Origin: an uncultured Sneathiellales bacterium
Lineage (GTDB): Bacteria; Pseudomonadota; Alphaproteobacteria; CAYFNG01
Direction of reading: 5' to 3'
Length of the DNA stretch: 64,000 nt
Assembly: GCA_964344385.1 (NCBI GenBank)
Contig: CAYFNG010000002.1
Coordinates: 193,476-257,475 of the forward strand
Shown: positions 6,841 through 62,074 of the stretch, one piece after another
Layout: every line of letters starts with the position of its first letter
Numbering within the stretch: position 1 is the first letter of the stretch
The notes under the pieces: model-generated
The model's input: the letters and a program-made list of their open reading frames with translations, nothing else
Database searches by the model: none
Told to the model about the DNA's origin: nothing
Program-made: the position numbers and the translations under genes

Positions 6841-7530
6841 ATGACACCGTATCGCCTGCTAAAAGTCAGCTTTCTGGGCCACGAAGTACCGGTACTACTG
6901 GTACGCAACAACCTGCCGGCCGGCGCCAGAGTAATCAAGCGGACAATCGATATCCTGGGCGCCGCCTCGCTGCTGACTTTGCTGTCGCCGTTGTTTGCGG
7001 TGATCGCGATCTTGATCAAGGCCGGTGGCGGTAACGTGTTTTTCGGTCATACCCGTATCGGCCGTCAGGGCGAGCCCTTCCCCTGCTTCAAGTTCCGCAC
7101 CATGGTGCCGAACGCCGAGGAAATCCTGAAAGGCTATTTGGCGGAAAATCCGGAAGCCAAAGCCGAATGGGAACGGGACTTCAAACTGAAGAATGATCCC
7201 CGGGTGACCGCAATCGGCGCTTTCCTGCGCAAGACCAGCCTGGATGAACTGCCGCAGCTGTGGAACGTGCTGCGCGGCGAGATGAGCCTGGTCGGTTCGC
7301 GGCCGATCACCGAAGCAGAGCTGAGCCGCTACGGCGATCATGTCGGTGTCTATCTTGGCGCCCGCCCCGGCCTGACCGGCCTGTGGCAGGTCAGCGGCCG
7401 CAGCGACGTCGACTATGACGAGCGGGTCAGCATGGACACTTGGTACGCCCGGAACTGGTCGCTGTGGCAGGACGTGACGATCCTGTTCAAGACCGCGAAA
7501 GTCGTGGTCAACGGCCGCGGCGCCTACTGA
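6841..7530 (+). CDS. exoY: Undecaprenyl-phosphate sugar phosphotransferase (bacterial sugar transferase, ExoY/WbaP C-domain type), priming enzyme
   Basis: 229 aa. Conserved motifs [46 protein letters not shown] upstream of the ATG. Divergent from exoP across a 500-bp AT-richer promoter region. Confidence 0.85.
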
Positions 7531-49435: not shown

Positions 49436-50383
49436 ATGGCCGAACAGCAACGATTTCAGCGCCTGGCGCTGATCGGGATCGGCCTGTTGGGTTCGTCGAT
49501 CGCGCTTGGCGCGCGACGCAACGGCCTGGCGAATGAGATCGTCTGCAGCGCCCGGACCGAGGAAAGCTGTGCCAAGGCGCTGGAACTGGGCCTGGTCGAC
49601 CGCGCCACGACCGATTCGGCGGACGCCTGTCGCGACGCCGACCTGGTCATTCTCTGTTCCCCGGTCGGGACCTACGCGAAGCTGGCCGATACCATCCGAC
49701 CCGCCTTGATGCCGGGCGCGATCCTGACCGACGTCGGGTCGGTCAAGCAGGCGGTGTTCCGTGATGTCGGGCCGCTGGTGCCGGACGGTGTCCATTTCAT
49801 CCCCGGCCACCCGGTGGCGGGTACCGAGCAATCGGGGCCGGAAGCCGGGTTCGCCGAATTGTTCGACGGGCGCTGGTGCATCCTGACGCCGCCGCCGGGC
49901 TGCGATCCGGCGGCGCTTCAGCGCCTGGCCGGGTTTTGGCGGGGCCTGGGCAGCCATGTTGAGCAGATGGATGCCAACCACCATGACCTGGTGCTGGCGA
50001 TTACCAGCCATGTACCGCATTTGATCGCCTACAACATCGTCGGCACGGCGGACGATCTGGAGACGGTCACGGAAAACGAGGTCATTAAGTACTCAGCCGG
50101 CGGTTTTCGCGACTTCACCCGTATCGCCGCATCGGATCCGACCATGTGGCGGGACGTTTTCATCAACAACCGCGAAGCGGTGTTGGAAATGCTGGGCCGG
50201 TTCAACGAGGACCTGATCGCGCTGCAAAGGGCGATCCGCTGGGGCGATGGCGACACCCTGTTCGACCTGTTCACCCGGACCCGGGCGATCCGGCGGGCGA
50301 TTATTGACGCGGGCCAGGACTCGGCAATGGTGGATTTTGGCCGCCATCCGGAAATAGAGGCGGCAGAGCCAGAAGCCGAATAG
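49436..50383 (+). CDS. tyrC: Prephenate/arogenate (cyclohexadienyl) dehydrogenase
   Basis: 315 aa. N-terminal Rossmann LALIGIGLLGSSIA, catalytic GHPVAG(T) motif. Confidence 0.85.
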   Translation: MAEQQRFQRLALIGIGLLGSSIALGARRNGLANEIVCSARTEESCAKALELGLVDRATTDSADACRDADLVILCSPVGTYAKLADTIRPALMPGAILTDVGSVKQAVFRDVGPLVPDGVHFIPGHPVAGTEQSGPEAGFAELFDGRWCILTPPPGCDPAALQRLAGFWRGLGSHVEQMDANHHDLVLAITSHVPHLIAYNIVGTADDLETVTENEVIKYSAGGFRDFTRIAASDPTMWRDVFINNREAVLEMLGRFNEDLIALQRAIRWGDGDTLFDLFTRTRAIRRAIIDAGQDSAMVDFGRHPEIEAAEPEAE

Positions 50384-51374
50384 ACCCGGCATACAGATAT
50401 CCGTCGACCGCCTTGACCGGCACCCTAAGGCGGCGTTCGCCGTCATTGTCGGTCCGCGCCAGCAGGTCGAGCGCCAGCTTGGTGCCAACCGCCTGTTTCT
50501 TCTTTACCTGGCCGGTGGCGACCAACGCATCGACCAGCGACCGGTAGCCGGCAATCTTTCCCGACACCTCGCCAATTGGCCGATTGGCAGCGTCCAGGGC
50601 CAGGCGGCCCTTGCCTTCAACCGCGACCTTGCCCCAGGTGATGCCGAATTGTTGGACCTGTACGTGACCGCCTTTGTCGCGCCACTCAGGCAGGGTGACC
50701 AGCCCCTGTTCCGGTGGCGGCAATTGATAGATCCTGGCGTCGAAACCACCGAACTCGACTCGGCGGGCCATGAAATCCGCCACGCCTTGCGGCAGGTCGA
50801 CACCGCTGAAACTGATCGCCAGGTCACCGGTCTGGTCGGGCCGGTCGGCCTGTTGGCCGCGGTTGAAGCGTCCGATCATCTGCGCCTTGCCGATTTGGTA
50901 GGTGCGGTCGGTGCCCACCTCGGCCAGTTCCCCGTCGCCCACGCCAAGTGAGAAACGCTGCAACCCGCCATGGTTCAGGTCGAAGATGAGGTTTCCGTAG
51001 GTCAGTTTCGAACTTAGCCGGAACTGCCGCGGCTGCCGGCCATCGTCGAACACCAGGTGCTGAGGGGTCGTGTTCTTGATGATGACGCTGTTCAAGGCCC
51101 AGGGTTCGACGATCAACAGCAACTCATCGCTCTGCCATTCCCAGGCCGGGTGCCGCTGGGGTGCGGCGAAGGCGGGATTGCGCAGCACGATCATGATCCG
51201 GTAGGGAAACCCGGCCACCTCGCGGCCGTCCTGGGCGTAGGTGTAGCCTTCCGCCAGGCGGTCCGTGATCCAGGTGTCGAGGCGGGTGACCATTTCGTCG
51301 GCCACCACCGTCCAATAGACGTAATAGCCGCCGACTGCGGCCAGGATAAACCCCAAAACGACGAGTATGCGCAT
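50301..51374 (-). CDS. DUF2125 domain-containing protein
   Basis: 357 aa. N-terminal TM/signal (MRILVVLGFILAAVGGYYVYW). The in-frame stop gives an 83-nt convergent overlap with tyrC. Confidence 0.55.
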   Translation of the reverse strand: MRILVVLGFILAAVGGYYVYWTVVADEMVTRLDTWITDRLAEGYTYAQDGREVAGFPYRIMIVLRNPAFAAPQRHPAWEWQSDELLLIVEPWALNSVIIKNTTPQHLVFDDGRQPRQFRLSSKLTYGNLIFDLNHGGLQRFSLGVGDGELAEVGTDRTYQIGKAQMIGRFNRGQQADRPDQTGDLAISFSGVDLPQGVADFMARRVEFGGFDARIYQLPPPEQGLVTLPEWRDKGGHVQVQQFGITWGKVAVEGKGRLALDAANRPIGEVSGKIAGYRSLVDALVATGQVKKKQAVGTKLALDLLARTDNDGERRLRVPVKAVDGYLYAGSIRLLALPPLFPDGGQNPPLPSPGPRQ

Positions 51375-51477: not shown

Positions 51478-53790
51478 TCAGCCGCATTTCGAGTGGCCGC
51501 ACGCGGTGCAGGTGTCGCATCCTTCCTGACGGATCAGGGCCGGCTGGCTGCATTTCGGGCACCGGCGGAACGGCGCGCCCTGGGTTTCGTCCTCGCCGAC
51601 CGCCTTGGGCAGCACGGCGCTTTCGGCTTCCTGGTCGCGGCCGCCGGCGATGAAACCGATGTTGATCAGGTGCTGTTCGATGACCTCACCGATCGCCGCC
51701 AGCAATGACGGCACGTAACGCCCGGCCATCCAATGGCCGCCGCGCGGGTCGAACACCGCCTTCAACTCCTCGACCACGAACGAGACATCGCCGCCACGGC
51801 GGAACACCGCACTGATCATCCGGGTCAGCGCCACCGTCCAGGCGTAATGCTCCATGTTCTTGGAGTTGATGAAGACCTCGAAGGGGCGGCGGCGGCCGTC
51901 CTGAACGATGTCGTTGATGGTGATGTAGATGGCATGATCGCTTTCCGGCCAGGCGATCTTGTAGGTCTGGCCGGGCAGGGCTTCGGGCCGGTCCAGCGGC
52001 TGGGTCATGTAGACGATCGCCCCGGCCTCGGCGGTGGCGGCGGTCTTGCCGACCGGCCGTTCGAAGGGCAATTCCGGTTCCTTGTCCTTGGCCTTTGACC
52101 GGGTCTCCAGCACCGCGCCGGTGATATCGTTCGGCCGGTAGGTGGTGCAGCCCTTGCAGTCCAGGTCGAAGGCCTGCAGGTAGATGTCCTTGAAATCGTC
52201 GAAATCGATCTCTTCGGGCACGTTGATCGTCTTGGAGATCGAACTGTCGACATATTGCTGAACCGCGGCCTGGACCGCCAGGTGGTCCCGCGGCTGCAAT
52301 CCTTGCGAATCGACGAAATAGTCCGGGATCGGGGCGGTTTCGCCCTTCAGCCGCCGGTACAGCCGGTAGGCGTAGTCGGTGACCTCCTCGTGGCGGCGGC
52401 TGCCGTCGGGCATCAGCACGTTGCGGCCGTAGGAAAAGCTGAACACCGGTTCCAGGCCGCTGGAGACATTGTCGGCGAACAGGGAAATGGTCCCGGTCGG
52501 CGCCACCGAGGTCAGCAGGGCGTTGCGGATGCCCTGGGCCTCGATCGCCTGGCGCACCTCCTCATCCAGGTCTTGGACGGTCTCGCCGGCCAGATAGGCA
52601 TCGGCGTCGAACAGCGGGAAGCTGCCCTTCTCGGCCGCCAGTTCGGCGCTGGCCAGATAGGCAGCCCGCTGGATCGCGCGCATCCAGCGGCGGGTCAAGT
52701 CCAGCGACCGGGCGTCGCCATAACGCGCCCGGCACATGATCAGCGCATCGCCCAGCCCGGTAATGCCAAGGCCGATCCGCCGCTTGGCGCGCGCCTCATG
52801 GGCCTGTTCCTCGAGCGGGAAATTAGAGATCTCGATGACATTGTCGAGGAAACGCACCGCCGTCGCTACCAGCTTGGCCAGGGCCGCCTCGTCCAGCGCC
52901 GCCTCTTCCTCGAACGGGTTATTGATCAGCCGGGTCAGATTGATCGACCCCAACAGGCAGGCGCCATAGGGCGGCAACGGCTGCTCGCCACAAGGATTGG
53001 TTGCATTAATCTTCTCACAATAATATAAATTGTTGCGGCGGTTGATGCGGTCGATGAAGATCACGCCGGGCTCGGCATAGGCATAGGTCGCCCGCATGAT
53101 CCGGTCCCACAGGTCCCGGGCCGGCAACGATTTGTGGGTGACGCCGTTGAACCGCAGCTCCCAGGGGGCGTCCTCCTTGACCGCCTGCATGAAGTCGTCG
53201 GTGATCAGGACCGACAGGTTGAACATGCGCAAGCGCCCCGGCTCCTGCTTGGCGTCGATGAACGCTTCGATGTCCGGATGGTCGCAGCGCATGGTCGCCA
53301 TCATCGCGCCGCGCCGGTGGCCGGCGCTCATGATGGTGCGGCACATGGCGTCCCACACATCCATGAAGGTCAGCGGTCCGGACGCATCGGCGCCGACCCC
53401 CTTGACCGGGGCGCCCTTGGGCCTGAGCGTCGAAAAATCATAGCCGATGCCGCCACCGGCCTGCATGGTCAGCGCGGCCTCTTTCAGGTGCTGGAAGATG
53501 CCCGACATGTCGTCGGGGATTTCGCCCATCACGAAACAGTTGAACAGGGTGACCCGGCGGGATGCACCGGCCCCGGCCAGGATGCGGCCGGCAGGCAGGA
53601 AGCGGAAATCCTCCAATGCCTCGTAGAACCGGGTCTCCCACAGCTCAGGCTCGTCTTCGACCGAAGCGGCGGCCCGGGCCACCCGGCGCCAGCTATCCTC
53701 GACGGTGGCGTCCAGGGGCCGGTCCTCGGCGTCTTTCAGCCGGTACTTCATGTCCCAAATCTGTTGCGAAATCGGCGCAATCGTCGGCAT
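51478..53790 (-). CDS. nrdJ: Adenosylcobalamin-dependent ribonucleoside-diphosphate reductase (class II RNR)
   Basis: 770 aa. Catalytic-site Cys regions (TNPCGEQPL), a B12-binding region and a C-terminal Zn-ribbon CPKCSQ...CDTCTACGHSKCG. Confidence 0.9.
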   Translation of the reverse strand: MPTIAPISQQIWDMKYRLKDAEDRPLDATVEDSWRRVARAAASVEDEPELWETRFYEALEDFRFLPAGRILAGAGASRRVTLFNCFVMGEIPDDMSGIFQHLKEAALTMQAGGGIGYDFSTLRPKGAPVKGVGADASGPLTFMDVWDAMCRTIMSAGHRRGAMMATMRCDHPDIEAFIDAKQEPGRLRMFNLSVLITDDFMQAVKEDAPWELRFNGVTHKSLPARDLWDRIMRATYAYAEPGVIFIDRINRRNNLYYCEKINATNPCGEQPLPPYGACLLGSINLTRLINNPFEEEAALDEAALAKLVATAVRFLDNVIEISNFPLEEQAHEARAKRRIGLGITGLGDALIMCRARYGDARSLDLTRRWMRAIQRAAYLASAELAAEKGSFPLFDADAYLAGETVQDLDEEVRQAIEAQGIRNALLTSVAPTGTISLFADNVSSGLEPVFSFSYGRNVLMPDGSRRHEEVTDYAYRLYRRLKGETAPIPDYFVDSQGLQPRDHLAVQAAVQQYVDSSISKTINVPEEIDFDDFKDIYLQAFDLDCKGCTTYRPNDITGAVLETRSKAKDKEPELPFERPVGKTAATAEAGAIVYMTQPLDRPEALPGQTYKIAWPESDHAIYITINDIVQDGRRRPFEVFINSKNMEHYAWTVALTRMISAVFRRGGDVSFVVEELKAVFDPRGGHWMAGRYVPSLLAAIGEVIEQHLINIGFIAGGRDQEAESAVLPKAVGEDETQGAPFRRCPKCSQPALIRQEGCDTCTACGHSKCG

Positions 53791-53899
53791 GGCGGGTCCT
53801 TAAGCGCGAAAACGGGCCGGGCAAAAGCTGAGCGAAATCTCGGAAACAGTGATTTTAGGTGCCGCCGATAACCCGGTCAAACAAAATCGTTCCCGTTAT

Positions 53900-53992
53900 G
53901 TTTCCACAAATCGCGCCCGATTCGCATCAACAGAACTGCCAATTTTTCGACTTATCCACAGGACGCAGGTAATTCCGCCAGATCTATCCACA
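53900..53992. promoter_or_regulatory. Cluster of DnaA-box-like motifs upstream of nrdJ
   Basis: Exact consensus TTATCCACA at 53952-53960. CTATCCACA (8/9) at 53984-53992. TTTCCACA (weaker) at 53901-53908. All in the same orientation, 110-200 bp upstream of the nrdJ start. Confidence 0.45.
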
Positions 53993-54011
53993 AGGGTGGG
54001 GCGAGTCGGTG

Positions 54012-54035
54012 ACCGGAAGCGCTGTAAATAGCGCT
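54012..54035 (-). terminator. Perfect 9-bp stem hairpin directly after the stop of the 54055-55560 gene (no U-tract)
   Basis: GGAAGCGCT-gtaaat-AGCGCTTCC. Confidence 0.35.
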
Positions 54036-54054
54036 TCCAGCCCCCAACCGACCT

Positions 54055-55560
54055 CTACTCGATCTCGAAGCTCTTGCTGAGGAAGGGGGACTGGCCGCCC
54101 TCGTGGATGAAGAACTCGACCTCTCTGGGATCGACCATCCCGGCGGTCCGGTGGACGGCGATGTCGTAATGGCCCAGGCCGGCCTGGGTGATGGTCACCG
54201 GCTTGTAGCTGCCGGCTGACCCGGTTGCGGTCTTGAACCAGGCGCCGCCATAGACCGGCATCGGATGGTTCGGCGACAGCACGTAGTGCACCCGGAACTC
54301 CATCCGGTCGGCATAGATGCCTAGTACGTCGCGACCGCGGATTTCGTCCGTCGCGCCGATCTGGTTGCCGGAAGCAATCATCCCGGTCACCGCGGCGGCG
54401 GTGCCGGTGCCCTGGTTGGCGGTCTTCGGCTGTCCTTGTGGCATCGGTATGATCGGTTGGACCATAGTGCCGACCGATGTGATCGTCCCTTGCGCGTCAT
54501 TGGGACCGGCCCAATGGATGCGCACCGACTCGATCTTGCCGTGGGGCCAGTGCTGTTTCAGGTCCAGGTCCGCCTTCTGGTTGCCGGGACCCGGCAACCT
54601 AACGAACTGTCCTTGGCAGTTCGGCGCGGCGAACAGGTCGGCCCAGGCCTGTGCTGGCCTTGCCAATTGCCATTTTACGCCGGCATTCATGATCTTGGTG
54701 CGATTGTGGGACGGGTAGTCGACGAAACCGATCTCGCGGCTGCGGAGGTCCCCGCTGGCCCTGTCGGCGAAGGAAACATCAATCAGGCAGTTGTTCGCCA
54801 TACCGGTCTTGGGTGGCACCGGCAGGAACTGGCTGTAATCGGTGAGGCTGTTGCCGTCGGCATACAGGTTGTGGAAAAGAACGCCCGCCAGACCGGTGTT
54901 GCGCCGGAACACGATGAACGACACCCATTTGCAGGGTAGGGTGTTGACGTCGTCGTGATTGTAGATGGCATCGCCGGCGTTGCGGTAGCTGTCGGCCGCC
55001 TTGCACAACCGGTCGCGGATCTGCTTGCCCGTGAAATTCATTCCGTTGAAGGTCGCGATCGCGGCATTGCTGCCCACCCGTATCGAGCCTACCCGACCCC
55101 AGGGCAGATTGTTGATGTGGCCCGACACCCAGCGATCGCCGGGCCCGACCCGGAAGGCTGCGGATTGCCCGACAAAATCCGGGCCTTCGTAGAGAATGAC
55201 CTCTTCCGGTTCCGGGTTGCGGCCGGCCTGTGGCAAACCCTGGCCGCCACAGCCCTGCATCTGCTGTTGTCGCAGCCGGGTCCCGTCCTGTACCTGGTTC
55301 GCCGGTGTTTTCAGGCACCAGCGGTAATGGTGTTGGAAGTCGTCGCTCCACACCGGGTATTTCAGCCCCGGGCAGTTCTGGGCCTTGGCAGCCCGGAACA
55401 TGTTGATCGCGGATTGCGCATAGTTGCTGCAAAACGCCGCGTCCGCCGCCATTGCCTGGCTGGCCGGCCCGGCGGTGCCGAACAAGGCCAACAGGAAACC
55501 GCCCAGCAGGGCGATCACGGGCATGGGTTTGGTGGCGGTGGTCTGGTGTCGATGGATCAT
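54055..55560 (-). CDS. Secreted protein of unknown function with beta-gamma-crystallin-like Greek-key motifs (paralog A)
   Basis: 501 aa, signal peptide (MPVIALLGGFLLALFGTAGPASQAMA). Cys-containing N-domain (CSNYAQSAINMF...CPGLKYPVWSDDFQHHYRWCLKTP). VILYEGPDFVGQSAAFRV...VGSIRVGSN resembles a beta-gamma-crystallin Greek key. Conserved C-terminal block FRVHYVLSPNHPMPVYGGA...VEFFIHEGGQSPF. Confidence 0.6.
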   Translation of the reverse strand: MIHRHQTTATKPMPVIALLGGFLLALFGTAGPASQAMAADAAFCSNYAQSAINMFRAAKAQNCPGLKYPVWSDDFQHHYRWCLKTPANQVQDGTRLRQQQMQGCGGQGLPQAGRNPEPEEVILYEGPDFVGQSAAFRVGPGDRWVSGHINNLPWGRVGSIRVGSNAAIATFNGMNFTGKQIRDRLCKAADSYRNAGDAIYNHDDVNTLPCKWVSFIVFRRNTGLAGVLFHNLYADGNSLTDYSQFLPVPPKTGMANNCLIDVSFADRASGDLRSREIGFVDYPSHNRTKIMNAGVKWQLARPAQAWADLFAAPNCQGQFVRLPGPGNQKADLDLKQHWPHGKIESVRIHWAGPNDAQGTITSVGTMVQPIIPMPQGQPKTANQGTGTAAAVTGMIASGNQIGATDEIRGRDVLGIYADRMEFRVHYVLSPNHPMPVYGGAWFKTATGSAGSYKPVTITQAGLGHYDIAVHRTAGMVDPREVEFFIHEGGQSPFLSKSFEIE

Positions 55561-55831
55561 GGTCGTGCACTCGTATTTGGTGCTGCCGACAGCACGTAAT
55601 CGGGCCGGCCGGCAGGGGTGAACGGGTTGTGCCGCCGCGCCACACCGTTGGCGCGGGCCTGTCTGCTTCCCCAGGTTGGACGTCCACTGCCTTTGCTGGC
55701 CGGCGGTTCCGAACCGGTCACGGTTGAAACATCAGACCCGCCGGAAATAATCCTTTTGGTTTATAGGCCCGACGATAGCGTGTATTGGCGGATTATTCCA
55801 CCCGCTCTTTCTAGTCCGTCGATTGCCGCGG

Positions 55832-57478
55832 TCACGGCAGGTTGAACCGCTTCCTCACGAACGGGTGCTGGCCGCCCTCATAGAGGAAGAACTCGACGGC
55901 ATCGGGTCGGGATCGGTCCGAGGTCAGGTTCACCGTGATCTCGAAGCGGCCAGTGCCGGGCCGGCTGAGCGTCACCGGACGGAAGCCGCCGCCCTTTTTC
56001 GACCCGTTCATCAGGAAGGCACCGCCATAAACCGGCATCGGGTGTTGCGGCGAAAGCGTGTAATGGACCCGGAACACCATGCGGTCGGCATGGACCTGCA
56101 ACAGGTCATGGCGGTGGATGGCGTCCGCCTGGCCGGTCGCCTGCGCCGGTGCCGTGCCCTGGCCGATCACCCCCGTCACCACGCCGGTCGCGGTTGCGGT
56201 CTTGGGATCGGGGGCTTCTGGCGCTTTCCTGGCATTTCCGGACGGGGCCTCGGTGGGCATGTTTCCGATGACGCCTGTCGGATTGACTGCGACGGAAACC
56301 CCGGTGGCGACGGCTTGGCGGTCGTTGCCGCCGGTCCAATGAACCCGCAGTGAACGGTAACGCGTATCGGGTTTGGCGAAATAGTCGGCCTCAAACACCA
56401 GCGTGCGGTTGTTGGCGCCCGGCAGACGCAGGAAAGATCCCTGGCAATTGGGTTGCGTGAACAGGTCGACCTTGAGACGCGGCGCGGGTTTCGTCGAGTT
56501 GTACCCGCCATCCGATGGCAATACGCCATCGCTTTGCTGAAATGGCAGGTCCACCAGATTGAGCAGTCGCTTTGGCGGGCGGTTCTTGTGGTATGTTCCG
56601 ATATTGCCAAATCCGAGCTTGAACGGATCAAGCCTCAAATCCGGGTAACAAACGCTTTCCACACCGCGCACCCGTGGTACCGGAAAGAAGCGTGACGTCG
56701 TGTCGTAGTGCTGGGCGCTGCCTCCGAGTTTACTGATAACCGGAACCGCGCGTGTCCAGCCGGCTCCGACCAACCCCTCGTTTCGCCGGAAAATGATGAA
56801 CGACTTGACCTCGCAAGCCAAACGGAGGTCTTCGTCCTTGAAGACCGCCTTGCTACCCCAACGGAATTGTTCGAGTGCGGTTCCGCTGAAATCGCAATAG
56901 TCGTCCTGCTTGCCGATGCTTCCGAGGGTGCTGCGATTGAAGAAGACTACTCCGACATTACTGCCTAGGCGATAGGATCCGATCGGGGACCCGCTGTCCG
57001 GTTCCGCAAAAGGCAAGTGTGCAACTTCACCAAATTCCCAGCGGTTCTCGGGTTTCAAGCGGTAGACAGCACTACGGCCCACATGTTTGATCTTCTCGTA
57101 AAAAACAACCTCGTCTGGCCCCGGTCCTGAGCCGGTGACCGGCAGGCCCTGGCCGATGCAGTTCTCCAGTTGTCGGCGTCTGAGGTCAGCGCCGCGCCGG
57201 ACCTCGGCGTCCGGCGCTTTCAGGCACCAACGGTAATGATACTGGAAATCGTCGCTCCAGACCGGATAGGTGAGGTGGGAGCAGCCCCGGGCGCGCCCAG
57301 TGGCGAACAGGTCAATCGCCTGTTGCGCGTATTCGCTGCAGGCCGCCGCCGCGGCTGCCCGGGCTGGATGGCCGCCGGGCGCCACCACCACACCGGCGAC
57401 CGTCGTTGCCATGGTCACCGCGACCACAAAGATCCGTCGCAAGGCCCGGGCGCCGTTGAGTCGTTCTGTATTCGCCAT
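55832..57478 (-). CDS. Secreted protein, paralog B of the 54055-55560 product
   Basis: Start MANTERLNGARALRRIFVVAVTMATTVAGVVVA (RBS GAGGGGA). Same conserved blocks as paralog A (CSEYAQQAIDLF...C..LTYPVWSDDFQYHYRWCLKAP; VVFYEKIKHVGRSAVYRL; FRVHYTLSPQHPMPVYGGA...VEFFLYEGGQHPF). Confidence 0.6.
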   Translation of the reverse strand: MANTERLNGARALRRIFVVAVTMATTVAGVVVAPGGHPARAAAAAACSEYAQQAIDLFATGRARGCSHLTYPVWSDDFQYHYRWCLKAPDAEVRRGADLRRRQLENCIGQGLPVTGSGPGPDEVVFYEKIKHVGRSAVYRLKPENRWEFGEVAHLPFAEPDSGSPIGSYRLGSNVGVVFFNRSTLGSIGKQDDYCDFSGTALEQFRWGSKAVFKDEDLRLACEVKSFIIFRRNEGLVGAGWTRAVPVISKLGGSAQHYDTTSRFFPVPRVRGVESVCYPDLRLDPFKLGFGNIGTYHKNRPPKRLLNLVDLPFQQSDGVLPSDGGYNSTKPAPRLKVDLFTQPNCQGSFLRLPGANNRTLVFEADYFAKPDTRYRSLRVHWTGGNDRQAVATGVSVAVNPTGVIGNMPTEAPSGNARKAPEAPDPKTATATGVVTGVIGQGTAPAQATGQADAIHRHDLLQVHADRMVFRVHYTLSPQHPMPVYGGAFLMNGSKKGGGFRPVTLSRPGTGRFEITVNLTSDRSRPDAVEFFLYEGGQHPFVRKRFNLP

Positions 57479-57670
57479 AATCCGTCCCCTCTGAAAGGGC
57501 CACATGCCGGCCGGCGTGATCTCGTCGGGGATACGGTGACTCCGGCGGGCGATCCCGGGCCGATCCAAGGGGCATTAATTTCCCCGATGGATCTACCGAA
57601 CGTAGCACAAGCAAAACCCAGGCGCGACGCCGGATTGCGCGATTTTGCCGATCGCGTGCGGAGAAAACGC

Positions 57671-58411
57671 CTATTGCACCGCGGTTCCCGTTTCGCCCCG
57701 GCCTTCGGCGACCAGTCTGGCGGTCGCGGCCTCGATCCGTCCCTCCAGCACCGCCATGAACTCCTTGCGCTTCAGTCCCGGCGGGATCGGTTCCAGGAAC
57801 TCGACGATGACGGTGCCGGGATGGCGCAGGAACGAGCGACGCGGCCAATAGAGGCCGGAATTCAGGGCGACGGGCACCACCGGCAGGTCGAGCTGGCCAT
57901 AGATCGCCGCGATCCCCGGCTGGTAGGCGATGCGCTGGTCGACCGGCGACCGCGTGCCCTCAGGGAAGATCATGATCATCTGGTCGCGGTCGATCGCCTC
58001 TCGGGCCGCCTTGATCATCGCCTTGACCGCCTTGGCGCCGCCCTTGCGGTCGACCGGGATCATGCCGGCCTTGCGCATCTCGGCGCCGAACAGCGGGATC
58101 TGCATCAACTCCTTTTTCAACACCGTGGCGATGGTCGGGAACAGCCGATGAAAAAAAATCGTGTCCCAGGCCGACTGGTGCTTGGCGGCGATGATGCAAG
58201 GCTGGGTCGGCAGGTCGCCCCGCACTTGGTAGTGCAGCCCGGCAATCTTCAGCAGCACGTCGTAGATCCCGACCGCCCAGATCTGCTTGGCGGCGATCAG
58301 GACCGGCCGGGGCAGCAGCACCAATGGCAGGGCGGTGACAACGCACACCGTGCCCCAGACATAAAAGCAGATGTCGAACAGCACCGATCGCACGGCCGTG
58401 ATCATGACCAA
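57671..58411 (-). CDS. plsC: 1-acyl-sn-glycerol-3-phosphate acyltransferase
   Basis: 246 aa. HX4D motif (AAKHQSAWD) and FPEGTRS motif. Confidence 0.85.
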   Translation of the reverse strand: MVMITAVRSVLFDICFYVWGTVCVVTALPLVLLPRPVLIAAKQIWAVGIYDVLLKIAGLHYQVRGDLPTQPCIIAAKHQSAWDTIFFHRLFPTIATVLKKELMQIPLFGAEMRKAGMIPVDRKGGAKAVKAMIKAAREAIDRDQMIMIFPEGTRSPVDQRIAYQPGIAAIYGQLDLPVVPVALNSGLYWPRRSFLRHPGTVIVEFLEPIPPGLKRKEFMAVLEGRIEAATARLVAEGRGETGTAVQ

Positions 58412-58427
58412 CTACCCCCCAACTTCC

Positions 58428-59021
58428 TCAGCCGATCAGCCGCGCCCGGATCAGGCTGAAGGCAAACTTGCTGTACTCCCGCGCCAAAAGGTACAGGGTG
58501 CCCGGCCAGGCCCACCATTCCAAATGGCGCACATGGCTGGGGAATACCGGTTCGGCGAACAGTTCCACCTCGGGCAGGCGGCGGCGCAGTTCGACCAGGC
58601 TGCGCGGCATATGATAGCCTGAGGTCACCACCCGCAAGGTTTGAATGCCGTGCTTGGCGGCCCAGGCCGCGGTCTCTTCCGCGTTGCCGGCGGTATTGCG
58701 GGCCTTGTAGTCCAGGTCAACGCAGCAGGCAAAGATCGGTGCTTGCGACTGATTGAGGCCGGCCTTGATCGATTCGCCCGCACCGGCCCCGACACCGGAC
58801 AAGAACATCCGCCGGCCCATGCCGGCCGCCATCAGTTCCAGCCCTTTTTCGACCCGCGATGTGCCGCCGGTCAGCACCACGATACCGTCGGTTTGTCGCT
58901 GCGGCTGCTCGGGACCAGCGGGCAGGGATTCAACGAAACGCAGGAACCCGCCGAACCACAGCAGCAGCAGGGCGAAAACCGCCACCCCGACACCGCGCAT
59001 GGGGCGAAACAGTTTCATCAA
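58428..59021 (-). CDS. YdcF/ElyC-family (DUF218) protein
   Basis: 197 aa. N-terminal TM, DUF218-like core (IVVLTGG...GYHMPRS). Confidence 0.65.
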   Translation of the reverse strand: MMKLFRPMRGVGVAVFALLLLWFGGFLRFVESLPAGPEQPQRQTDGIVVLTGGTSRVEKGLELMAAGMGRRMFLSGVGAGAGESIKAGLNQSQAPIFACCVDLDYKARNTAGNAEETAAWAAKHGIQTLRVVTSGYHMPRSLVELRRRLPEVELFAEPVFPSHVRHLEWWAWPGTLYLLAREYSKFAFSLIRARLIG

Positions 59022-60445: not shown

Positions 60446-61161
60446 TTCATCGCCACTTTTGGGATCGACGGGTCCTCGACCGACACCCGGCCGTCCTCGA
60501 TTCGCAGGATTGGATAGCCGAATTTGGCGACCAGGTTCTCATCATGGCTGGCGATGACGATGGCGGTGCCCAGCCGGTTCAGTTCGACGAACAGGCGCAT
60601 CAGCCGCATTCCCATCTGGCCGTCGACGCTGCCGGTGGGTTCGTCGGCCAGCAGAAAGCGCGGCCGGCCGATCACCGCCCGGGCGATGGCGACGCGCTGT
60701 TTCTCGCCGCCCGAAAGGGTCGGGGGATAGGCGTTCAGCTTGTCGGCCAGCCCGACCCAGGTCAGCAGTTCGGTGACGTGTTCGGTGATTTTCTGGTTGC
60801 TGACATCACCGGCGACCCGCAGCGTCAGGGCGACGTTCTCCATGGCCGTCAAATGGTCCAGCAGGTGAAAATCCTGGAACACCACCCCGATCTGGCGGCG
60901 CAACTCGGGCAGCTTCGCCCGCGGCGCCGTGGCGATGTCCTGGTCGAACATGGTGATCAGGCCGCGGCTGGGCGGCAGAGCCAGGTACATCAGGCGCAAT
61001 AGCGAGGTCTTGCCGGCGCCGCTGGGGCCGGTCAGGAAGTGGAACGACCCCGGCTCCAGGCGGAACGAAACGTCCTGCAGCACTTCCGGACCCATACCGT
61101 ACCGTACGCCGACATTTTCGAACCGAACCAAAGGGCCCGAATCCTGTATCGTGCTGCTCAT
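60442..61161 (-). CDS. ftsE: Cell-division ATP-binding protein FtsE
   Basis: 239 aa. Walker A GPSGAGKTS, signature LSGGEKQRV, Walker B LLADEPTGSVD. Confidence 0.85.
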   Translation of the reverse strand: MSSTIQDSGPLVRFENVGVRYGMGPEVLQDVSFRLEPGSFHFLTGPSGAGKTSLLRLMYLALPPSRGLITMFDQDIATAPRAKLPELRRQIGVVFQDFHLLDHLTAMENVALTLRVAGDVSNQKITEHVTELLTWVGLADKLNAYPPTLSGGEKQRVAIARAVIGRPRFLLADEPTGSVDGQMGMRLMRLFVELNRLGTAIVIASHDENLVAKFGYPILRIEDGRVSVEDPSIPKVAMK

Positions 61162-61231
61162 TTCCGTCAGCCTTGCCTTGACCCAGGCAAACGCCTATAA
61201 GGTTTTAGCCGCAGATTCAAGTATATACGGC

Positions 61232-62074
61232 ATGATCCTAACCTGCCCATCTTGCGCAACGCGCTATTTAGTCAATCCCGATGTGTTGGGTACCAACGGG
61301 CGAACTGTGCGTTGTGCCAAATGTGGTGATTCCTGGTATCAGGAGCCGCAGATCACCCAGACGGCGCCACCCGAGCCTGCGCCCGTGGATGCCCCGGCTG
61401 CCGAGGCGCCAGCCGACGACCCCAGCGAGGCGCCGGCACCGGAACAGGCGCCGGCACCAGAACCGAAACCCGAACCGGTTCGGGAAGTGCCGCCGGTGAC
61501 GCCGATCCCGGACGCCGTCAAACCGATACCGCGGGGGTCGAACCTGCCCGCCTTGCGTGGCCAGAAACCTAGCCGGCCGGCCTGGGTCGGGTGGGCGGCC
61601 CTGGTGGCTGTTATCGCCATCGTGTTCGGTGCCGGCTATTTCTTCCGCGGCCCGATCGCCGCGACCTGGCCACCGGCGACAAAACTGTACGCCATGTTGG
61701 GCGTCACGATGCCGGCACCGCCGGCCAAGGCCCCGGAAAGCCCCAGCGCCAAACCGGAACAGCCGCAGGACCTGGGCCTGAAACTGGGCAACATCATCGC
61801 CGAGCAGCGCCGCGAGGAAGGGGTGCTGGTCCTCAAGATCACCGGCGAGATCATCAATGTCGTCCAGGAAATGCAGGCCATCCCGCCAATCCGCATTCGG
61901 ATCTTCAATCCCGAAAGCGAACAGGTGGCAGCCTGGAATCATCAGGTCAAGAAATCGGAATTGGCTCCGGGCGAAAAGCTGACCTTCACCACAAGGCTGA
62001 CCAACCCGCCAAAGGATACCGCCAAGCTGGAAGCGACGTTCCTGCAGGACCAAAGCCCGACGCTGACCCGTTAG
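61232..62074 (+). CDS. Zinc-ribbon (MJ0042-type) / DUF3426 domain protein with Pro-rich linker and one TM
   Basis: Start MILTCPSCATRYLVNPDVLGTNGRTVRCAKCGDSW (CxxC...CxxC ribbon). PEPAP-rich low-complexity linker, TM segment WVGWAALVAVIAIVFGAGYFF, conserved C-terminal domain. Confidence 0.7.
   Translation: MILTCPSCATRYLVNPDVLGTNGRTVRCAKCGDSWYQEPQITQTAPPEPAPVDAPAAEAPADDPSEAPAPEQAPAPEPKPEPVREVPPVTPIPDAVKPIPRGSNLPALRGQKPSRPAWVGWAALVAVIAIVFGAGYFFRGPIAATWPPATKLYAMLGVTMPAPPAKAPESPSAKPEQPQDLGLKLGNIIAEQRREEGVLVLKITGEIINVVQEMQAIPPIRIRIFNPESEQVAAWNHQVKKSELAPGEKLTFTTRLTNPPKDTAKLEATFLQDQSPTLTR

Follow-up and report, generated by a model that had tools for sequence, protein, structure and literature searches.

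The question raised by this locus is what is encoded by two adjacent genes of an uncultured Sneathiellales bacterium, and what their exported products may do. The genes, here called A and B, lie in a 64,000-nucleotide window (the whole stretch of contig CAYFNG010000002.1 that was analysed), in which a sequence-only reading had described them as tandem secreted proteins with beta-gamma-crystallin-like Greek keys, probably of a novel family and possibly binding calcium. We assign a probability of roughly 0.55 to the reading that A and B are an exported, non-catalytic, modular tandem pair acting as Ca2+-independent, disulfide-stabilised binding or scaffold proteins outside the cytoplasm; the structural part of this reading is the stronger and the functional part the weaker. 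What is new here is the domain combination built on the known beta-gamma-crystallin fold, and not a new kind of system.

Gene A (54055-55560, minus strand; 501 residues from an ATG start) was delimited by its open reading frame (ORF) and its paralogy to B, and gene B (55832-57478, minus strand) encodes 548 residues counted from its ATG, with the four-part architecture of A; both ORFs lie exactly where the sequence-only reading had placed them. After the signal peptide, the four parts are a cysteine-framed N-domain, a pair of crystallin-type domains (M1 and M2), a linker, and a C-terminal domain (C-domain). The ORF listing also gives an in-frame upstream TTG that extends B to 57568, adding 30 residues. 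Products of 501 and 548 residues were also called on 12 independent contigs, representing five sequencing runs of one metagenome project together with an NCBI genome assembly (a 562-kb contig).

The two proteins were collinear from the first cysteine to the last residue, with 37% identity over 505 columns (BLASTP, E 8e-110), and every sequence block quoted as conserved by the earlier reading was present. Their paralogy is far above chance. Identity was 57% in the N-domain, 48% in the C-domain, 38% in the linker, 37% in M1, and 33% in M2. At the DNA level, only the C-terminal parts remained alignable (74-80% over 122 and 54 nucleotides), which indicates that the duplication is old; the direct repeats D1 and D2, found by the DNA-level repeat search at a spacing of 1777 nucleotides, lie in the C-domain-coding parts of A and B. 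At 37% identity, the ratio of nonsynonymous to synonymous substitutions (dN/dS), which would bear on the diversifying selection suggested by the sequence-only reading, is saturated for this pair.

The middle region was assigned from family profiles. In A, M1 covers residues 117-222 (54895-55212, minus strand) and M2 residues 223-352 (54505-54894, minus strand), as delimited by the profiles searched against the PDB and by AlphaFold2 (AF2), and in the case of M2 also by hhalign. The counterparts in B, assigned by alignment, hidden Markov model (HMM), and signature check, are residues 120-234 (56777-57121, minus strand) and 235-383 (56330-56776, minus strand; from FTQPNCQG to SLRVHW), and the domain HMMs matched B at N, M1, M2, and C with E values of 6e-26 to 4e-32. 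When the M1 alignment (profile A4, A residues 117-222 with nine relatives) was searched against all PDB sequences, 26 matches were obtained, and all 22 with E<0.2 belonged to the beta-gamma-crystallin superfamily. The best were 5z6e (DUF1881/Crystall_3; E 6.7e-6) and spherulin 3a (1.3e-5 over the full domain), followed by clostrillin, 3i9h, 3ent/3enu, flavollin 3hzb, M-crystallin, and beta-B2/B3 crystallins, so that more than 10 distinct solved crystallins were reached with E values of 6.7e-6 to 1e-3. The M2 profile (A5) matched Protein S (1.6e-4) and beta-B2 crystallin (1.6e-3) through residues 305-350, its C-terminal Greek key, and M1 key 1 aligned to M2 key 4 with an E value of 3.8e-5 in hhalign.

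The A/B profile matched the relative P0083 from M1 through the C-domain (probability 98.7%, E 1.9e-16). Against the Pfam models Crystall (PF00030, gathering threshold 25 bits) and Crystall_3 (PF08964, 27.3 bits), relatives scored 13.8-25.6 bits; on Crystall_3, all were below the threshold (P0083 25.6 and P0018 24.3 bits; P0083, P0018, and P0056 together span 19-26), and the region concerned is homologous to A residues 117-185. The AF2 model built with a 10-sequence alignment (mean predicted local distance difference test score, pLDDT, of 67) had eight strands in residues 120-219 and eight in 225-350, at a pLDDT of about 70-85 (about 70-80 in the M1 strands of A), three helices in the N-domain, and a sandwich in the C-domain. 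A first run with a 2-sequence alignment reached a pLDDT of 41.5 and was poor outside the C-domain. The Greek-key-like segments noticed earlier thus fall within beta-gamma-crystallin-type domains, whose family profiles match solved beta-gamma-crystallins only. That the middle region of A and B is a pair of such domains is supported at the family-profile level only.

The signature Y/F/W-x-x-x-x-Y/F-x-G lies at the first hairpin of each crystallin motif (PMC3551895), and the conserved serine was expected about 25-40 residues past it. In the superfamily, each domain folds as a wedge of two sheets made by a pair of four-stranded Greek keys. In A, the signature was found as YEGPDFVG (124), FNGMNFTG (171), and FAAPNCQG (310). 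Key 1 of M1 runs from Y124-x4-F129-x-G131 to S159, and key 2 from F171-x4-F176-x-G178 to S214, with a helical insert that bears C186 and C210. In M2, which holds C258 and C315, key 3 is degenerate and key 4 is canonical (F310-x4-C315-x-G317 to S345-VRIHW), with C315 substituting the second aromatic residue. Across 8-10 aligned family members, the closing serines of A (S159, S214, and S345) vary little or not at all. The signature is only partly present in B, as YEKIKHVG (key 1 degenerate, with histidine for the aromatic residue) and FTQPNCQG. As a regular expression, it gave three matches in A (shuffle P=0.015) and one in B (not significant), which is weak evidence when taken alone.

The Ca2+ motif N/D-N/D-x-x-S/T-S terminates in the conserved serine of each Greek key (PMC3551895). 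By either a strict or a relaxed pattern, none of the four Greek keys of A or B had a canonical motif; the hexapeptides aligned at its position in A are WGRVGS, PCKWVS, and HGKIES. Calcium binding by A and B, which the sequence-only reading had put forward from the habits of bacterial crystallins, is therefore not supported. Canonical or near-canonical motifs were present in the relatives P0083 (NDKASS and EDKVSS) and P0018 (EDKVTS). Cysteine pairs inside the crystallin domains were observed in A, B, and several relatives, and disulfides may stabilise these domains of A and B in place of Ca2+. As studies of bacterial beta-gamma-crystallins have mostly treated them as Ca2+-binding modules, a double-domain member with all Ca2+ sites lost and disulfides gained would offer a natural case of the trade of Ca2+ binding for intrinsic stability discussed for lens crystallins.

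Among known systems, the single-domain S-type spherulin 3a of Physarum polycephalum (PDB 1hdf, 1ag4) is close to M1: profile positions 3-100 align to its residues 10-96 (E 1.3e-5), with both Greek-key hairpins and both conserved serines in register. However, spherulin 3a consists of one domain, cytosolic or of the spherule, with canonical Ca2+ motifs (NDVVSS in the alignment), and it has neither the N-domain, the C-domain, and the disulfide pattern nor a second crystallin domain. Protein S of Myxococcus xanthus (PDB 1prr, 1nps) shares with A and B two tandem crystallin domains with four Greek keys in one chain, and its motif 1 aligns to key 4 of A/B (M2 profile, E 1.6e-4); in contrast to A and B, which have no Ca2+ motif and a degenerate key 3, it is a Ca2+-dependent spore-coat protein with no extra domains. 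Crystall_3 (formerly DUF1881; solved as 5z6d and 5z6e) supplied the best PDB match of the M1 profile, although A and B themselves do not match it at E<=10 and relatives remain under its gathering score. In vibrillin, Yersinia crystallin, flavollin, and clostrillin, crystallin domains are modules of larger proteins, secreted or at the surface, whose role is unknown and which are in many cases lineage-specific; the crystallin domains of these multidomain microbial proteins have NDxxSS motifs of the canonical form and bind Ca2+ (PMC3551895). Flavollin (3hzb, a 'carbohydrate binding protein') and clostrillin are among the PDB matches of the M1 profile, but the partner domains of the multidomain proteins are different, and none has been reported with an N- or C-domain of the A/B type.

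At the start of both products, a hydrophobic core lies between a basic n-region and an AXA site (AMA before AD in A, ARA before AA in B), and, as earlier proposed, both are predicted by inspection to carry signal peptides, which look to be of the Sec type. That of A spans residues 1-38 (55447-55560, minus strand; MIHRHQTTATKPMPVIALLGGFLLALFGTAGPASQAMA followed by AD), and that of B spans residues 1-40 (57359-57478, minus strand; ending in ARALRRIFVVAVTMATTVAGVVVAPGGHPARA before AA). The mean Kyte-Doolittle value of the core over 11 residues was 2.68 in A and 2.12 in B. All eight cysteines of A (44, 63, 82, 104, 186, 210, 258, and 315) align to cysteines in B, and this position-for-position conservation fits an oxidising, extracytoplasmic destination, so that export and disulfide bonding of both proteins are probable. 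A lipoprotein reading of 'AAAAAC' in B was rejected because its cysteine is the invariant first cysteine of the N-domain, which also occurs in internal N-domain repeats. Residues 13-17 of B, 'LRRIF' (57430-57440), form a loosely Tat-like Arg-Arg-x-Phe that the A signal does not have; a Tat route for B would be odd with four likely disulfides.

The N-domain, delimited by AF2 and the family HMM, comprises residues 44-104 of A (55249-55431, minus strand), framed by C44, C63, C82, and C104, and residues 47-107 of B (57158-57340, minus strand; 57% identical, HMM E 5.9e-26). Its motif in A is C..YA..A...C...YPVWSDD..HHY.WC...R...L..C, and it was modelled as three helices with a pLDDT of about 80-92. 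In domain numbering, C4, Y7, W31, H38, W41, C42, and R57 are invariant. The second and fourth cysteines (C23 and the last) are lost together in proteins of the C-N architecture, which argues for disulfides pairing cysteines 1-3 and 2-4. A 35-sequence N-domain profile matched nothing in the PDB, and none of its members matched Pfam or NCBIfam.

The C-domain comprises residues 405-501 of A (54058-54348, minus strand; AF2 and family HMM) and residues 452-548 of B (55835-56125, minus strand; 48% identical), and in A reads FRVHY.LSP.HPMPVYGGAW...GY.PV...G.G...EVEFF..EGGQ.PF..K.F. It is predicted to be a beta-sandwich and was modelled confidently in both AF2 runs (pLDDT 77-91, 7-8 strands). No sequence match was found for it in the PDB, Pfam, or NCBIfam, and its structural neighbours in Foldseek were weak, immunoglobulin-like (Ig-like) or carbohydrate-binding-module-type (E about 0.01, TM score to target 0.53-0.58). 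The C-domain was found in 28 of the best 150 family representatives and the N-domain in 143, in one to nine copies.

The linker is predicted to be flexible: residues 353-404 of A (54349-54504, minus strand), rich in Pro, Gly, Thr, Ala, and Gln, had a pLDDT of 24-43 in both models, and residues 384-451 of B (56126-56329, minus strand) align to it. Relatives have a PAN_4 domain at the position of the A linker. A linker motif, (A)TPISIPRP or more generally P-[ILV]-x-[ILV]-P-x-P, was observed in 23 of the 150 representatives, mostly just upstream of the C-domain (among them P0017, P0020, P0021, P0024, P0032, P0046, P0068, P0097, P0114, P0137, P0139, and P0144), and residues 368-374 of A, 'QPIIPMP' (about 54439-54459), are a loose version of it. 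Processing, modification, or docking may take place at this motif.

A and B appeared at first sight to be orphans. Neither matched Pfam, NCBIfam, PADLOC, or PHROGs (E up to 1-10), so that no enzymatic family was found, as expected from the earlier reading, nor any well-characterised peptidase or glycoside hydrolase that would speak against it. Among 5.8 billion proteins, a word-indexed search recovered only A, B, and their mutual matches; an 8-sequence profile added only P0070, and the N-domain profile returned nothing. This apparent orphan status is due to the limited reach of the word-indexed search, since the A/B profile, run in an exhaustive HMMER search, gave domain-wise matches in 784 cluster representatives at E<=1e-3, of which 187 were at E<=1e-10. 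The same profile found no relatives in genome contigs and only three loci in metagenomes; tblastn against plasmids was negative, and a literature search returned nothing relevant on this domain combination.

Architectures were assigned to the best 150 of the 784 representatives with four HMMs (N, M1, M2, and C). The N-domain alone, in 1-9 tandem copies, accounted for 115; C-N was found in 17, N-C in four, and N-N-C in one, that is, N- and C-domains together without crystallins, in either order, in 22. M1-M2-C occurred in six and M1-M2-N-N in three, and the C-domain stood alone in one (P0149, with a Pfam Tectonin domain). The full N-M1-M2-C order was limited to three of the 150, namely A, B, and P0003, a protein of 489 residues from contigs of about 41% GC. 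The N- and C-domains, judged from these architectures, are mobile domains separate from the crystallin pair, and since the GC content of the contigs that carry the family runs from 41 to 70%, the domains are widely spread. The claim of a novel family therefore needs division: the N- and C-domains, like the four-part architecture, are indeed unannotated, but 784 representatives sharing domains exist. Family genes also stand adjacent or nearly so on unrelated contigs of 41-67% GC (L093, 2-175 and 153-1736; L087, 199-1668 and 3193-4572; L097, 3320-5941 and 6001-6981), and local clustering or duplication seems common across the family, not only in this window.

The N- and C-domains are fused in either order, stand in arrays with as many as nine copies, and are exchanged with lectin domains, with the consensus C..YA..A..//..PVWS.D..HHY.WC..//..R...L..C for the N-domain and ..Y...P....PVY.GAW.Y....//..GY.P....//..VEFF..E.GQ.PF...RF for the C-domain. 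We tentatively propose, at somewhat less than even odds, that they are two undescribed, widespread extracellular families forming a functional couple, and that A and B represent a new class of Ca2+-independent secreted crystallins to which these domains contribute a new ligand-binding activity. Two domain families that recur across hundreds of sequence clusters, lack any counterpart in Pfam, NCBIfam, or the PDB, and repeatedly pair with lectin-type domains are of interest beyond this locus, and defining them would annotate many secreted proteins now called 'hypothetical'.

The genes are flanked, as the sequence-only reading had it, by nrdJ, encoding a 770-residue ribonucleotide reductase (Ribonuc_red_lgN/lgC and TSCPD domains), and plsC, encoding a PF01553 acyltransferase, and the pair adjoins an ftsE-ftsX-DUF218-plsC block. 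By its NrdJ homologues (best match 76% identical), the host falls among uncultured Rhodospirillales-like Alphaproteobacteria, and synteny was compared in 80 related genomes. The order ftsE-ftsX-(HAD)-DUF218-plsC-nrdJ was kept in about 55 of the 80, with the end of plsC about 250 bp before nrdJ, and none of the 80 loci had an A/B homologue at the junction. Because the junction is conserved and empty of homologues, the 3.9-kb A/B segment is a lineage-specific insertion. The third-codon-position GC content (GC3) was 0.82 in A and 0.73 in B, near the local norm (neighbours 0.77-0.89), so that the genes are largely ameliorated. A mobile element was considered as the source and rejected, as no transposase, integrase, or terminal repeat flanks the pair in the window; the earlier statement that mobile-element hallmarks are missing is thus true, though the pair is an insertion in a conserved junction whose content varies in other genomes. 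For the host genome, A and B would be an accessory surface or periplasmic pair, and the reading of core metabolism is unaffected.

Concerning function, the mature proteins would begin with a three-helix domain of roughly 60 residues, probably closed in A by the disulfides C44-C82 and C63-C104, followed by the two consecutive crystallin-type domains, with four Greek keys that have all lost the canonical Ca2+ motif and, in A, probably the further disulfides C186-C210 and C258-C315. A disordered Pro/Gly/Thr-rich spacer would then lead to the C-terminal Ig-like beta-sandwich. In such a protein, the crystallin pair may be a rigid and stable stalk, with the N- and C-domains as its ligand-binding ends; the task, whether periplasmic or at the cell surface, may be to recognise a glycan or envelope polymer, to adhere, or to build a matrix. 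In relatives, the same domains are fused to PAN_4, WSC, Tectonin, and DM9, which are protein- or carbohydrate-recognition modules, and this is the main basis for preferring a binding role over catalysis. The analysis thus shows the paralogy, the domain boundaries, profile-level crystallin homology, the missing Ca2+ motif, the modular spread of the domains, and the insertion into a conserved junction, while export, disulfides, the binding function, and the tasks of single domains are inferred. Several observations weigh against the proposal: the lectin-type partners are found in relatives and not in A or B; either protein alone is nonsignificant against any crystallin (single-sequence E about 1, with no significant match in single-sequence PDB searches); Pfam yields nothing for them at E<=10, Crystall models included; the crystallin assignment depends on a 10-sequence family profile; the AF2 confidence is moderate; and homologues have no conserved non-family gene neighbourhood, so that nothing points to a pathway.

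Other explanations were weighed, each of which is less supported than the binding or scaffold role. In Gram-negative bacteria, proteins that have signal-peptidase-I-type signals and no lipobox go to the periplasm by default, and A and B adjoin the ftsE-ftsX-DUF218-plsC block; they could thus be periplasmic envelope structural or sensor proteins tied to ftsEX and plsC, and not surface adhesins. However, that block is kept without A and B in all 80 relatives examined, which indicates that the adjacency reflects an insertion and not an operon; moreover, a terminator-like site lies between plsC and B, and homologues occur in unrelated gene contexts. We consider a tie to this block unlikely. Quite unlikely, too, is a Ca2+-dependent stress or coat function such as that of Protein S or spherulin 3a, in which the proteins would assemble into a layer at the surface that protects starved or desiccated cells: spherulin 3a is the best full-domain PDB match, M2 matches Protein S, and P0083 and P0018 have near-canonical motifs, but [ND][ND]xx[ST]S occurs at 0/4 Greek keys in A or B, and neither Protein S nor spherulin has the N-domain, the C-domain, or the disulfides.

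The accessory, lineage-specific, and tandem nature of the genes, the clustering of family genes in other contigs, and the toxin-antitoxin, Fic, and insertion sequence (IS) elements carried elsewhere by the junction would also agree with a diversifying arsenal of secreted antagonists (toxins or protease inhibitors) with a killer-toxin or SMPI-like crystallin fold, to which weak Inhibitor_I36 matches in relatives (P0018, E 0.0024; P0056, E 0.12) might be added. These I36 matches reached only 18.2 and 12.8 bits (PF03995, cut-off 21.1 bits) and were not seen in A or B; being sub-threshold and overlapping a better Crystall_3 match, they reflect the same fold clan. Further, no immunity-like small gene, secretion-system or delivery domain, or PADLOC or PHROGs match was found, nor any pore-forming or enzymatic toxin domain in the Pfam and NCBIfam scans, and an antagonistic role is therefore very unlikely. 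The preferred reading, a Ca2+-independent binding or scaffold pair, agrees with the partner domains of the relatives and with the Ca2+-motif search.

The plsC-nrdJ junction (53791-54054 and 57479-57670 in the window) is a recurrent insertion site in relatives. Its other cargo includes an IS630-like transposase (L065), a HigB/HigA pair (L072), and Fic, GNAT, LysE, and cyclase genes (L031); unknown ORFs occupy it in L037 and L038, and L069 is also among the junction loci. Right after the stop codon of A, a hairpin at 54000-54053 (minus strand; inverted repeat I2) with a folding energy of -41.4 kcal/mol (z = -4.5 against shuffles) and no U-tract is likely a transcription stop or an mRNA-stabilising stem; it lies between the pair and the nrdJ promoter region, which has a sigma70-like site at 53880-53852. 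Between plsC and B, a consensus scan, which is weak evidence, gave a terminator-like stem with a T-run at 57615-57636 (minus strand), suggesting that transcription from plsC does not simply run on into B. Rfam returned nothing over 53000-58500.

The 10-bp palindrome GCCGGCCGGC lies 30-45 nucleotides upstream of both start codons (55604-55613 and 57506-57515) and was considered as a shared operator of A and B. It is present in seven copies in the window against 1.24 expected, the others at 6915, 13693, 15187, 18789, and 61572, and it was rejected as a specific operator because it is a word over-represented throughout the genome. Elsewhere in the window, a DUF2125 protein gene (50301-51374, minus strand) and a prephenate/arogenate dehydrogenase gene (49436-50383, plus strand) overlap at their 3' ends by 83 nucleotides (50301-50383), an arrangement also observed on L001. 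Just past ftsE, a gene at 60929-62074 (plus strand) encodes a Zn-ribbon/DUF3426 protein in which a long spacer is rich in Pro, Ala, and Glu, and its neighbour on L001 (2297-2908) is another DUF3426-like gene; both are unrelated to A and B.

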